The notes: a model not told the origin generated them from the letters alone. DNA of 64,000 nt from an uncultured Rickettsiales bacterium (GCA_934747265.1 CAKVGI010000006.1:10606-74605), one strand, 5' to 3'; positions 36,176 through 42,344 are shown, numbered from the stretch's first letter. A program made the numbers and translations.

Positions 36176-37510
36176 ATGGTAAAAATAATTTCTTTTATAA
36201 TTTTATTTTTTGCATATCAAAATGCATTTGCAAATATGATTATTACTAATTTTAATGAAAAAATTAATTTTACTGATTATGGTAGAGAAGTTGAGACTAG
36301 TATAAAGATTAGAATTAGCCTTGAAAGTAATAATCAATATTATAAAGAATGGAGATATATTTTTGATAAAAGATTAAAAGTTAATATTTTAGAAGCTAAG
36401 GTAATTGGAAAAAAATATAAAACATCTTTTAATAATAATGAATTAATATTTCAATTTGGCAATGCAGTAAACGGCGATTTATTTGAATTTAGATTTAAAT
36501 ATAGAATATATAATGAAAATACAATAAAATATATTAGAGACGAATTTGTATCAATTCCTTATTTTGCGAGTGGAGCCAATGGTAATATAGTTGTAAATAT
36601 ACCAAATAATCTGGCGGTTTATTCTTTAAATAGAAAATTTACACAAAATGGCAGTACTTATACTTGGAGAGGTACTGTACCAAAAAATGGATTTTCTGAC
36701 TTTTTCTTTTTGACTTTAAAAAAAGCTAAATGGCAAGTAGAAATTTTAAGTGAAATAAGTTCAAACAAAAATATATCAAGCTTTGATATGATTATTCCAT
36801 TATATTTTAAAAATGGTAATAATAAAATTGAAAAATATATAGTAGAAGCTAATTATAATAATAATTTTGCAAAAATAATAGAGAGTCAAGATTCAATAAT
36901 TACAACTTTCAGAAATGCTGATAATTCATTATTTCAGGTAAAAGTTGATGCCATTTTAAGTAATGATTATGATAACAAAATATGGATTAAATTAAATCCA
37001 CAAAATTATTTAAAAATAGATAGAAGTTTATCTAATTATTTACAGAACATTATTTACCAAATAAGACAAAATACAAAAGAAGACGAATTATTATATGTTA
37101 TATTAGCTCAATGGGTAAATAAAAATGTTGAATATGACACAAATTACGTTGGAAAAGATTTAACTACAAAGGAAATTTTAGAAAAAAAGAAAGGCGTTTG
37201 TATACATTATGCACAATTATATAATGATTTATTAAGATCAGTTGGAATACCATCGGTAATAGTTTCTGGAATTAGTTATAATACAACGAATAATAAATTT
37301 GAAAATCACGCTTGGAATTTAGTCTACACAAACGGCGATTGGAGAGCAATAGACCCAACTTGGGGTTTATATTCTGGAATTTTACCAGTTTCTCATATAT
37401 TTTTATATTTTGAAAATAGACCAGTAATTAATTATACAACTTACTCTAATTCTTCAATTCATTTTAAAAGCAATATTCAAAAAAATATAAACTTTATCAA
37501 TGAGTATTAG
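36176..37510 (+). CDS. secreted transglutaminase-like cysteine protease domain protein
   Basis: Signal peptide ..AYQNAFA. C-terminal Cys-His-Asp core: GVCIHYAQLY, ENHAWNLVY, AIDPTWG. Confidence 0.75.
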   Translation: MVKIISFIILFFAYQNAFANMIITNFNEKINFTDYGREVETSIKIRISLESNNQYYKEWRYIFDKRLKVNILEAKVIGKKYKTSFNNNELIFQFGNAVNGDLFEFRFKYRIYNENTIKYIRDEFVSIPYFASGANGNIVVNIPNNLAVYSLNRKFTQNGSTYTWRGTVPKNGFSDFFFLTLKKAKWQVEILSEISSNKNISSFDMIIPLYFKNGNNKIEKYIVEANYNNNFAKIIESQDSIITTFRNADNSLFQVKVDAILSNDYDNKIWIKLNPQNYLKIDRSLSNYLQNIIYQIRQNTKEDELLYVILAQWVNKNVEYDTNYVGKDLTTKEILEKKKGVCIHYAQLYNDLLRSVGIPSVIVSGISYNTTNNKFENHAWNLVYTNGDWRAIDPTWGLYSGILPVSHIFLYFENRPVINYTTYSNSSIHFKSNIQKNINFINEY

Positions 37511-38960
37511 ATGAAATAAAATCAATTATCATACTTCTAAAAGAAAATAAAGTATAGAAAACAGAAATTAATGTCATTTGTATCTTATAGTTAGATACTA
37601 TACCACCGCCCTGTTGTAATTTTTTTATAATTTGTTTTTCTTCCTCTATGTTATTAGTTTTTTTTCTTATGGTAATTATGATATGGGTAATATAAACACC
37701 CAATAAGACAAATAATTCTAACATATTAATAAAATATAACACATTAAAATTGTTAAAATCCAAACTTAAAAATGAATAAAAATTCATAAATATAGGTAAA
37801 AACTCAGCTATAAAAAACAAATTAACTTTTAATTTTGAATATTTGTAAATTGTTCCAATACTTGTAGTATTTAACTTTAATAATTCAAATAACACTGCCG
37901 AATAGGAAAGAATACTAATTGTAATTCCAAAAACTAATAATAAGAAATTAACGTATAATTTTGCTAATTCTTCTGCTGTATTAAGAAATAAAAATTGAGA
38001 GAAAAATATTATAAAATTTAAAAATCCAAACAGTAAAATAAATTTTACACCATTTTTTATATATTTAAAATTCAAAAACAATAACAATAAGAATATAACT
38101 ATAAGGAAAAATCCAGAGTAGTAAAAATATAAACCAACATTACTAATATTATTATAAAAAACATAATACAAAACTTTTGTGAATAAAAATGTATTAAAAA
38201 TAATAAAAGGAAATATTAATATTACAAGCATTGGTAATAAATCTTCATAATAAAATTTTTCTTTAAATACAAAGTATATTGGCCCCGATAAATTAATTAA
38301 AATTAATAAAAACAAAATAACCAACAGCCAATATATCTCAATATTTTCTAATTTTGATATATTTTGAAATGTAAATAAATTGTTTTCATTATAAATAAAA
38401 TAAAATCCAAGAATGCAAAGAAAAATCATACTTGAAATAAAACTAATTGTTAAAACAATAGAATAATCTTTTCTAAAATCCTTTAAATCTGGATTTGTTA
38501 TTAAGAAGTAAGAATAAATTAGCACCAAAGTATACAATAACAAACTAACAACAATATCGTGAGAAAAAGACAAAAATATATATAATATATACAAACAAGC
38601 AATTTGTTGGTTATATAAAACGTACTTATCAGATAAGTTTAATAAATTGAAAGAATCTTGAAATAAATAATTTAAGTAAAAAATCATAACCGCCATAGTT
38701 ATACCAAAAGATAAATTAAACGGTTCAGAGGAAAAAATTATAGGTATATTTCTAGAAATTGAAAATAATCTTATATAATTTATACCATTAAAAGAATAAA
38801 GAATTACAAGTAATACACAAAACGCAAGAATAGTCCCATAAGTAAAATTATTTATTTTTTTTTGTAGTCCAAAATTTTCATTGGTGAAAAAACTATTTAA
38901 TAATCCAATAAAAGGAACTATTAAAATCATTGCGAATATAAAATTATAAACAAACTGCAT
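37497..38960 (-). CDS. polytopic membrane protein, possible divergent MrpD/NuoLMN-like antiporter subunit
   Basis: 487 aa with about 13-14 TM helices. Last gene of a five-gene co-directional cluster. The family assignment rests on weak by-eye resemblance only. Confidence 0.35.
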   Translation of the reverse strand: MQFVYNFIFAMILIVPFIGLLNSFFTNENFGLQKKINNFTYGTILAFCVLLVILYSFNGINYIRLFSISRNIPIIFSSEPFNLSFGITMAVMIFYLNYLFQDSFNLLNLSDKYVLYNQQIACLYILYIFLSFSHDIVVSLLLYTLVLIYSYFLITNPDLKDFRKDYSIVLTISFISSMIFLCILGFYFIYNENNLFTFQNISKLENIEIYWLLVILFLLILINLSGPIYFVFKEKFYYEDLLPMLVILIFPFIIFNTFLFTKVLYYVFYNNISNVGLYFYYSGFFLIVIFLLLLFLNFKYIKNGVKFILLFGFLNFIIFFSQFLFLNTAEELAKLYVNFLLLVFGITISILSYSAVLFELLKLNTTSIGTIYKYSKLKVNLFFIAEFLPIFMNFYSFLSLDFNNFNVLYFINMLELFVLLGVYITHIIITIRKKTNNIEEEKQIIKKLQQGGGIVSNYKIQMTLISVFYTLFSFRSMIIDFISSNTH

Positions 38961-38965
38961 ACCAA

Positions 38966-41450: not shown

Positions 41451-41740
41451 AAAATGAAAGGTATATTAAAATTTAATAAAATCATTAACACATATATCAA
41501 AAAAATTACAAACAATCCCAATAATATTTTTCCAAAAGCTTTAAAAATTACAAGATTTTTAGGAGTAATAGTTTTATGTCTCAAAAAAGATAGAATATAA
41601 GCAAGCAAAAAATATAATAAAGATACAGCAAAGCTATAAAAACCCATAACCCTATAACTTGTAATAGAAAAAAATCCAAACAAGAGTAAAAACGGTATAA
41701 AAAATGACATCATCATTCTAAGTATCAAATCACCTTTCAT
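41447..41740 (-). CDS. small membrane protein, possible MrpB/MnhB-like
   Basis: 97 aa with three TM helices. IPFLLLFGFFSITSYRVMGFYSF loosely resembles the MnhB P.illfg.Y....G...GGGF block. Confidence 0.3.
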   Translation of the reverse strand: MKGDLILRMMMSFFIPFLLLFGFFSITSYRVMGFYSFAVSLLYFLLAYILSFLRHKTITPKNLVIFKAFGKILLGLFVIFLIYVLMILLNFNIPFIL

Positions 41741-42344
41741 CTTCGTTCTCCCTATTAAAAAAGTATAAAACTATCACCATACATACATATAATATAATTA
41801 TATGGGTTAACTTTTGAAAAATTTTATTTTGATTTAGTAAAGCTATATTTTCTTGATATTCAATATACTGTTTTGAATAAGAACTTTTATAATTTTTTAT
41901 ATCAAAATTATTCAATTCAACATTATCCCTAATTACATATTCGCTTTGCGTTTTATTAATTTTATAAAAATTTAAACCTATTATTGTAAACATAATTAAT
42001 ATTGTTAAAATAGATAGATTTAGCTTTAAATTAATTTTTGTTTTATCTTTTACATAATTATCATCATAATCATTGTGCAAATTAAAAATAAAAAATATGA
42101 CAGCGAACAAGAAAAATATACTTATAACCAAAAACTCACCTAAATGAATTTGTTGAACAATAACAGTTGAAGCTATAAAAATAACTAAAAGTATACTAAC
42201 AAACAAGCTCAAAAAAACATTATATATATTTTTTACAAACAATAAAGAAGAAAACACCAACATCATCAATATAAATATAAGTGGTATATCAAATATTGTA
42301 AATAAAAAATTAAACATTCCATAATAACATTTTGAATTACACAA
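41730..42344 (-). CDS. membrane protein, first gene of the Mrp-like cluster
   Basis: 204 aa with about five TM helices. Its position corresponds to an MrpA C-terminal or MbhD/E-like subunit. No firm motif. Confidence 0.3.
   Translation of the reverse strand: MCNSKCYYGMFNFLFTIFDIPLIFILMMLVFSSLLFVKNIYNVFLSLFVSILLVIFIASTVIVQQIHLGEFLVISIFFLFAVIFFIFNLHNDYDDNYVKDKTKINLKLNLSILTILIMFTIIGLNFYKINKTQSEYVIRDNVELNNFDIKNYKSSYSKQYIEYQENIALLNQNKIFQKLTHIIILYVCMVIVLYFFNRENEDER

Follow-up and report, generated by a model that had tools for sequence, protein, structure and literature searches.

A strongly derived gene block of probable Mrp descent in an uncultured Rickettsiales bacterium

The stretch of DNA analysed here, hereafter the window, is 64,000 nt long and comes from an uncultured Rickettsiales bacterium (positions 10606-74605 of contig C6, CAKVGI010000006.1); the assembly has 1.11 Mb in 29 contigs and an estimated completeness of 96%, and the GC content is about 25% in the window and 26.9% in the whole assembly. 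Between positions 37497 and 42344, the window holds five membrane protein genes that, as far as homology is concerned, very likely represent the A'BCDD' half of a split and strongly derived Mrp complex kept by selection, where A' is the MbhD/MbhE-type (DUF4040) piece corresponding to the C-terminal domain of MrpA, and D' is a second antiporter-like subunit.

An earlier note on this DNA had described the genes as co-directional, with overlapping or abutting ends, and as encoding only polytopic membrane proteins, and this description is accurate: exactly five minus-strand open reading frames (ORFs) are listed at these coordinates. From the first gene to the last, successive neighbours overlap by 11 nt, 4 nt (ATGA) and 20 nt, and the last two genes are 5 nt apart; by a rough hydropathy count, the products of 204, 97, 345, 488 and 487 aa have about 5, 3, 3, 13 and 13 transmembrane helices (TM), respectively.

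In order and size the genes correspond to the A'-B-C-D-D' half of the operon that other families of the order carry in its canonical form, where MNHE, MrpF and MnhG precede a 5-TM MbhD+MbhE protein (∼180 aa), MnhB (∼140 aa, 4 TM), Oxidored_q2 (∼125 aa, 3 TM) and one to three Proton_antipo_M proteins. The Mrp systems of these other Rickettsiales families (e.g., locus L032 of genome G026) share with the window a separate A' gene of the MbhD/E type (DUF4040) followed by B and C, along with two or three separate D-type subunits of about 490-520 aa; they differ in that Pfam recognises them strongly (MbhD 6e-17, MnhB 1e-25, Oxidored_q2 2e-19, Proton_antipo_M 3e-54).

Identity of the five products

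The fourth gene (38966-40432, minus strand) encodes the 488-aa protein, an MrpD/MbhH-type antiporter-like subunit whose homology can be regarded as proven by profile comparison. The protein scores 28 bits with Pfam Proton_antipo_M (PF00361), above the gathering cut-off (GA) of 21.5, and this is the only match to that model in the whole genome; it also matches NCBIfam PRK12662 MrpD at 8.4e-24. The profile of its family finds MbhH as the best match in the PDB (6cfw_H, 5.7e-22), together with MrpD (7qru_D, 2e-14), and hhalign aligns the family with the first D-type subunit (D1) of relatives at 100% (5.9e-47). The block does therefore contain a significant profile match to the Mrp/complex I families, Proton_antipo_M lying above the Pfam cut-off.

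Regarding the channel residues of this subunit, they were read from a HMMER alignment to MbhH and a MAFFT alignment with relatives, and the calls depend on these alignments. The LK...G.YLLYR block, pointed out in the earlier note as a weak motif echo, is real: it is the TM7-TM8 region, and its K is the TM7 lysine. This lysine (K222) is invariant in the family alignment and pairs with the TM7 lysine of MbhH, and the TM5 glutamate (E140) is identical in 21 of the 21 aligned sequences.

As for the last gene (37497-38960, minus strand), its 487-aa product and the corresponding family have no match in Pfam, NCBIfam or PDB sequence searches. A HMMER search of 1.84 billion representatives returned 20 matches, none of them a canonical or annotated relative, and word-indexed searches likewise gave none; public records name the family members "hypothetical protein". 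The family hidden Markov model (HMM) detects, at 1.5e-8 and 4.7e-5, the ORFs that encode the second D-type protein (D2) in relatives; the D2 proteins carry Proton_antipo_M and, in two of the three tested, also Proton_antipo_N. With hhalign, the family aligns with the D2 set at 96.4% (E 1e-9, 356 columns), and with the D1 set at 2% only. The AlphaFold (AF2) model, built from an alignment that took in D2 relatives, has a pLDDT (predicted local distance difference test) of 83 and a pTM (predicted template modelling score) of 0.88, and all top Foldseek matches of this model are MrpD, ND4/NuoM, NuoL or NuoN, with template modelling scores up to 0.70. By profile-profile comparison and predicted fold, the 487-aa protein is thus a second antiporter-like subunit, and the positional orthologue of the NuoL/MrpA-N-type D2.

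The three remaining proteins are small subunits and, like the 487-aa protein, had no usable match in the Pfam and NCBIfam scans; PDB profile searches with the 204-, 97- and 487-aa families and with the N-terminal family of the 345-aa protein gave nothing significant. Hydropathy-profile correlation did not discriminate among the small-subunit families.

The second gene (41447-41740, minus strand) encodes 97 aa with 3 TM. In hhalign its family aligns with the order-specific canonical MnhB at 90-91% (E∼1e-6, 31-68 columns, TM1-TM2 only) and gives nothing with the five other small-subunit sets (E, F, G, A' and C); its sole PDB match, MrpB 6z16_B, has an E value of 3.7 and is not significant. The MnhB-like P..LLFG block of the earlier note exists, since the stretch "IPFLLLFG" falls on TM1 when the 97-aa protein is aligned with canonical MnhB. 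The hhalign result supports the view that this protein is a shortened MrpB (MnhB) homologue.

The third gene (40413-41450, minus strand) encodes 345 aa, of which only the first ∼100 residues are hydrophobic and membrane-embedded; this 3-TM module (41151-41450) occupies the MrpC/NuoK position, between the MrpB-like and the MrpD-like genes, as mrpC does in canonical operons. The family HMM matches, at 5e-7, a sister-genus ORF of 93 aa located at 2.3 kb from mrpD, and this ORF has matches to Oxidored_q2 (2.9e-5; 24.2 bits, under the GA of 26.1) and to NF005619 MrpC (0.0035). The best PDB match of the enlarged N-terminal family is NdhE/NuoK (7eu3_E), over the full length and at an E value of 0.064; direct hhalign with canonical MrpC reached only 4.6%, and the ESM-Atlas returned nothing informative for this N-terminus. 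Gene order and these weak leads suggest, weakly, that the module is MrpC. A sub-threshold match of the 345-aa protein to PFF1_TM was dismissed as compositional.

The remaining ∼245 aa of the third product (40413-41150) form an acidic low-complexity tail of D, E, N and K, built of triplet-period microrepeats. The tail occurs only in this genome and in two others, G008 and G005 (345, 312 and 282 aa, respectively), the gene being of ∼100 aa in the other species, and its ratio of nonsynonymous to synonymous substitutions (dN/dS) is 0.5-0.96, near neutral; the tail is a recent and almost neutral expansion, within which one short block, FDFEK..GLD, is conserved.

The first gene (41730-42344, minus strand) has 204 aa when read from a TTG; the start is most likely the ATG at 42317 (195 aa), since all orthologues begin at that point (MF..). 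Its topology consists of three helices, a fourth one, a hydrophilic stretch of ∼45 residues and a fifth helix, and its position is that of the 5-TM MbhD+MbhE protein of ∼182 aa that directly precedes MnhB in the canonical operons of the order. Two leads, to be read as leads only, point to the MbhD/NuoJ clan: in the ESM-Atlas, the features of the protein come closest to named MbhD/Oxidored_q3 clusters, at 0.82, and Foldseek ranks NdhG (NuoJ) first and second (E∼6) on an AlphaFold model of the family that is itself poor (pLDDT 55, pTM 0.27). On position, 5-TM topology and these two leads, the 204-aa protein is likely of the MbhD/E type. Pfam MbhD was not found in the genome, and the order-specific MbhD/E profile finds nothing in it; used within the family to look for intermediates, the same profile matched only the NuoJ of complex I in other genera, in the context of an 8-TM/160-aa/5-TM/3-TM block resembling NuoH-I-J-K.

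The series proposed in the earlier note, A', B, C, D and a second D, stands to a different degree for each member: MrpD is proven, the second D is placed by profile and fold, and MrpB by hhalign, while C and A' are placed by position and weak leads.

The second locus, the relatives and selection

The same note had reported no MrpE, MrpF or MrpG equivalents; this is correct for the window and not for the genome, since contig C5 carries E, an ORF in the position of MrpF, and G. MrpE (163 aa, C5 1343-1834) matches PF01899 at 29.8 bits (GA 27) and the order-specific HMM at 1e-16; MrpG (131 aa, C5 2104-2499) matches PF03334 at 37.5 bits (GA 23.4), TIGR01300 at 5.6e-10 and the order-specific HMM at 3e-13. 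The ORF between them (84 aa, 3 TM, C5 1850-2104) has no profile match and is placed by position only. The triad (C5 1343-2499) sits between nusB and mnmG, and order-specific HMMs found no second copy of any Mrp subunit elsewhere in the genome. A separate E-F-G triad is also present in three genomes of the same genus (G003, G005 and G008) and in genera g4 and g11, and MnhG co-occurs with the A'BCD block across relatives. Because E, the F-position ORF and G occur at a separate locus, the ancestral E-F-G-A'-B-C-D-D' operon of the order has been split in two, and not truncated.

In genera g4 and g11 (loci L096 and L102-L105), MrpG reaches 290-337 aa owing to a C-terminal addition of ∼200 aa, so that, after the 345-aa protein, it is the second small Mrp subunit to have acquired a long tail.

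Scattered mrp genes are documented in Anaplasmataceae: in Ehrlichia chaffeensis they occupy six loci, and they complement an Escherichia coli antiporter mutant (PMC8395091). The partition differs, FG-A'BC being accompanied there by single D and E genes, and here the two parts are A'BCDD' and EFG.

Compared with the Mrp (Mnh/Pha/Sha) systems of the CPA3 type, the set described here is alike in having D, a second A/D-type subunit, E and G, and probably B, C, F and the C-terminal part of MrpA, as well as in the A'-B-C-D gene order, the Proton_antipo_M fold and the TM5 glutamate and TM7 lysine of the MrpD-like subunit. Structures of CPA3 complexes exist for Bacillus pseudofirmus (7QRU), Anoxybacillus flavithermus (6Z16) and Dietzia (7D3U). 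The differences are several: MrpA is split into the 5-TM piece and a ∼490-aa antiporter-like protein, with no lateral-helix segment identified here; the genes lie at two loci; the probable MrpB has only 3 TM, and the protein in the MrpC position bears the acidic tail of ∼245 aa; MrpD has lost the lysines of TM8 and TM12, and the second subunit all channel residues; and no Pfam or NCBIfam model reaches its threshold with four of the five proteins. The membrane-bound hydrogenase of Pyrococcus furiosus (MbhA-H, PDB 6CFW) resembles the block in its MbhH, the best PDB match noted above, in having MbhD/E separate from the antiporter-like subunit, and in its equivalents of Mrp E, F and G; it differs in its hydrogenase and NuoH-, NuoB- and NuoD-type partners, none of which was found here, in having one antiporter-like subunit against two, and in K409 of MbhH, whose equivalent is lost.

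Within the genus, the five-gene block was free of stops in all six other species whose loci were compared, and the 488-aa protein matches all eight other species, with 61-79% identity. Three further genera, g4, g11 and g13, have the block in a version of four genes (about 206, 90, 92 and 490 aa), the loci of g4 and g11 having only 16-19% GC; neither frameshifts nor stops interrupt the block, which is taken as intact in nine species of the genus and in these three genera, and its tight translational coupling has been preserved. Some sister genera apparently lack the Mrp system.

Selection was assessed by the method of Nei and Gojobori on pairs within the genus. At a dS of about 0.7-1.9, which is near saturation and makes the ratios rough and probably overestimated, dN/dS was 0.09-0.26 across the five membrane parts: 0.10-0.26 for the 204-aa gene, 0.11-0.21 for the 97-aa gene, 0.09-0.24 for the N-terminal part of the third gene, 0.09-0.17 for the 488-aa gene and 0.19-0.23 for the 487-aa gene. 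Neighbouring genes of the same genomes gave 0.06 (ruvB), 0.16 (ruvA) and 0.20-0.26 (a transglutaminase-like gene). On these ratios, all five genes are clearly under purifying selection.

As for the bioenergetic context, NuoH (PF00146), NuoD (PF00346), NuoB (PF01058), NuoK, COX1 and DabA were not found in the 96%-complete genome; among 14 control genomes, the searches for NuoH, NuoD and NuoB matched in 11 each, that for NuoK in 14 and that for DabA in 2. No hydrogenase partner genes were found in the genome, while the alpha and beta subunits of ATP synthase are present. The lineage thus seems to lack complex I and the haem-copper oxidase. A search for the TLC ATP/ADP translocase was uninformative, as it matched 0 control genomes. 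Eleven genera of the family have NuoH (∼1e-129); it was not found in genera g4, g6, g8, g11 and g13, nor in three of the four g1 genomes, and all genera with the divergent block (g1, g4, g11 and g13) are among those without detected NuoH, a pattern rather than a test because the related genomes are not independent.

One genome of the same genus, G003, has fragmentary NADHdh (NuoH-like) matches on two separate contigs, C55 and C51 (2e-13 and 3.5e-12), and, on C55, a weak MnhG-like match in a 495-aa frame; these fragments could be another complex-I-like remnant or contamination (estimated at 2%).

Function and rival explanations

The whole is best explained, with reasonable probability, as the membrane core of a derived and split Mrp-type (CPA3) cation/proton antiporter. 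Under this explanation the eight products (A', B, C, D, D', E, the F-position protein and G) would assemble into one complex that would exchange Na+ (or K+) for H+; with an F-type ATPase present and no detectable respiratory chain, it would interconvert proton and sodium gradients. A canonical proton step would be possible only in the MrpD-like subunit, with its TM5 Glu/TM7 Lys pair, and the 487-aa subunit would most likely act as a structural or conformational partner, because every canonical channel residue has been lost from it. The chance that Na+/H+ or K+/H+ exchange persists in the complex is put at a little better than even.

The glutamate of TM5, the lysines of TM7, TM8 and TM12 and other residues are regarded as essential in the antiporter-like subunits of Mrp and complex I, on the basis of mutagenesis and structures. 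Several observations tell against an antiporter, the first being that most of these residues are missing from both large subunits. In the 488-aa protein, the position of the TM8 lysine falls in a gap and no lysine is present; the TM12 position, where MbhH has the lysine of GFxSKW, holds S or N, and the whole family lacks the TM12 lysine; and P.H.WLP has been replaced in the alignment with relatives, so that the canonical WLP-type signature is indeed lost, as had been noticed. The 487-aa protein goes further: where canonical D2 relatives show FYE, GKAALMPIHKWLPAAMVA, ALLHAVAVVKAG, HAFGK and GFISKW at the channel sites, it has a threonine in place of the TM5 glutamate, no TM7 lysine, neither His nor Lys in TM8, and a 7-aa deletion at the GFxxK motif of TM12. 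The D-type subunits of other Rickettsiales families keep the channel motifs, unlike the window versions, and other genera of the family are intermediate in the loss of these residues from the second subunit; the calls are alignment-dependent here as well. Base composition would not account for the loss of Lys and Glu, because their codons are AT-rich. Among the small subunits, the 97-aa protein lacks the HGxxSPGGGFQ motif and the fourth TM; PDVAITEAAVG and SYRGYDTLGE, strongly conserved in canonical MbhD/E, have no counterpart here; the 204-aa protein has no sequence link to MbhD/E, with nothing in Pfam or the PDB and 2-3% in hhalign; and the identities of the 204-aa protein, in part of the 345-aa protein, and of the MrpF-like ORF are read from position, size and topology only.

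The same losses (the TM12 lysine in both large subunits, all channel residues in the 487-aa protein, and in the small ones the MnhB signature and the acidic motifs that MbhD/E conserves) are what would be expected if the block were a true Mrp descendant under selection that no longer performs cation/proton antiport and has another role, such as conducting ions along another route in the small subunits, or organising the membrane or serving as a structural element. Two further points go in the same direction: new genus-invariant charged motifs have arisen, such as FKEKFYYED in the 487-aa protein, and the divergent block is found exactly in genera of the family without detected NuoH, which suggests a changed bioenergetic context. 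Against it, none of the 21 sequences compared departs from the TM5 Glu/TM7 Lys pair in the MrpD-like subunit, MrpE and MrpG are still recognisable and co-occur with the block, and there is no other partner or domain to indicate a different activity; moreover, in proteins so diverged the residue calls depend on the alignment, and K383, an invariant lysine four residues before the TM12 proline of the 488-aa subunit, might compensate for the lost TM12 lysine. A repurposed membrane module, one of the two options of the earlier note, keeps a minor share of the probability, most canonical channel residues being lost.

The other option of that note, an antiporter in decay, its genes turning into pseudogenes as selection relaxes and the genome shrinks, is very improbable: the extreme divergence, with four of the five proteins missed by all Pfam and NCBIfam models, the lost signature residues, the almost neutral tail of the third gene and the apparent loss of the system from some sister genera would suit it, but it is contradicted by the intact orthologues in at least four genera, by the conserved translational coupling, and by the dN/dS ratios, calculated as the note had advised, which are similar to those of the housekeeping neighbours.

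Finally, the membrane arm of a complex I-like enzyme (Mbh/Mbx/Hyf hydrogenase or NDH) or a DAB-type CO2-hydration system, to which MbhH as the best PDB match of the 488-aa family and the Mbh-like layout with a separate MbhD/E-type gene would lend themselves, was rejected as highly improbable, since the partner genes (NuoH, NuoD, NuoB, NuoK and DabA) were not found in a 96%-complete genome by searches that did match in control genomes, and MrpE and MrpG are present.

Returning to the derived Mrp system, its survival in genomes with ATP synthase, where complex I and the haem-copper oxidase are not detected, suggests that interconversion of H+ and Na+ gradients is still necessary in such host-dependent bacteria. 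The assignments matter for annotation too, as four of the five proteins and their public relatives have no family and are named "hypothetical protein", and the subunit map allows the block to be annotated in at least four genera of reduced, Rickettsiales-like bacteria. As to mechanism, the TM5 glutamate, the TM7, TM8 and TM12 lysines and the acidic residues of the small subunits are central to the debate on ion movement in Mrp and complex I, and natural variants under selection with most of these residues replaced either show which are dispensable or mark a change of function. A more far-reaching idea, put forward tentatively and rather doubtful, is that an Mrp system has been kept under long purifying selection in several genera although the TM12 lysine is missing from both antiporter-like subunits, every canonical channel residue from one of them, and the signature acidic motifs from the small subunits; if true, it would imply an ion path unlike those proposed for Mrp and complex I, or a non-transport role taken on after the loss of the respiratory chain.

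Neighbouring features of the window

At their 3' ends, the 487-aa gene and the convergent gene of the transglutaminase-like protein (36176-37510, plus strand) share 14 nt (37497-37510), and no terminator-like hairpin was seen at this junction; a scan for promoters and terminators was uninformative in DNA of 20-25% GC, with 71 sites against 58 expected and 0 terminators. Synteny around the operon varies in the genus: in the present genome ruvA, a 124-aa ORF and ruvB, together with the transglutaminase-like gene, lie downstream of the operon, and in G005 (locus L015) ruvAB lies on the upstream side. Four plus-strand ORFs of the window are free of Pfam domains, at 42530-43486 (318 aa), 44313-46499 (728 aa), 46937-48520 (527 aa) and 34758-35132 (124 aa); the last, located between ruvA and ruvB, is conserved in G005, with a dN/dS of 0.41.

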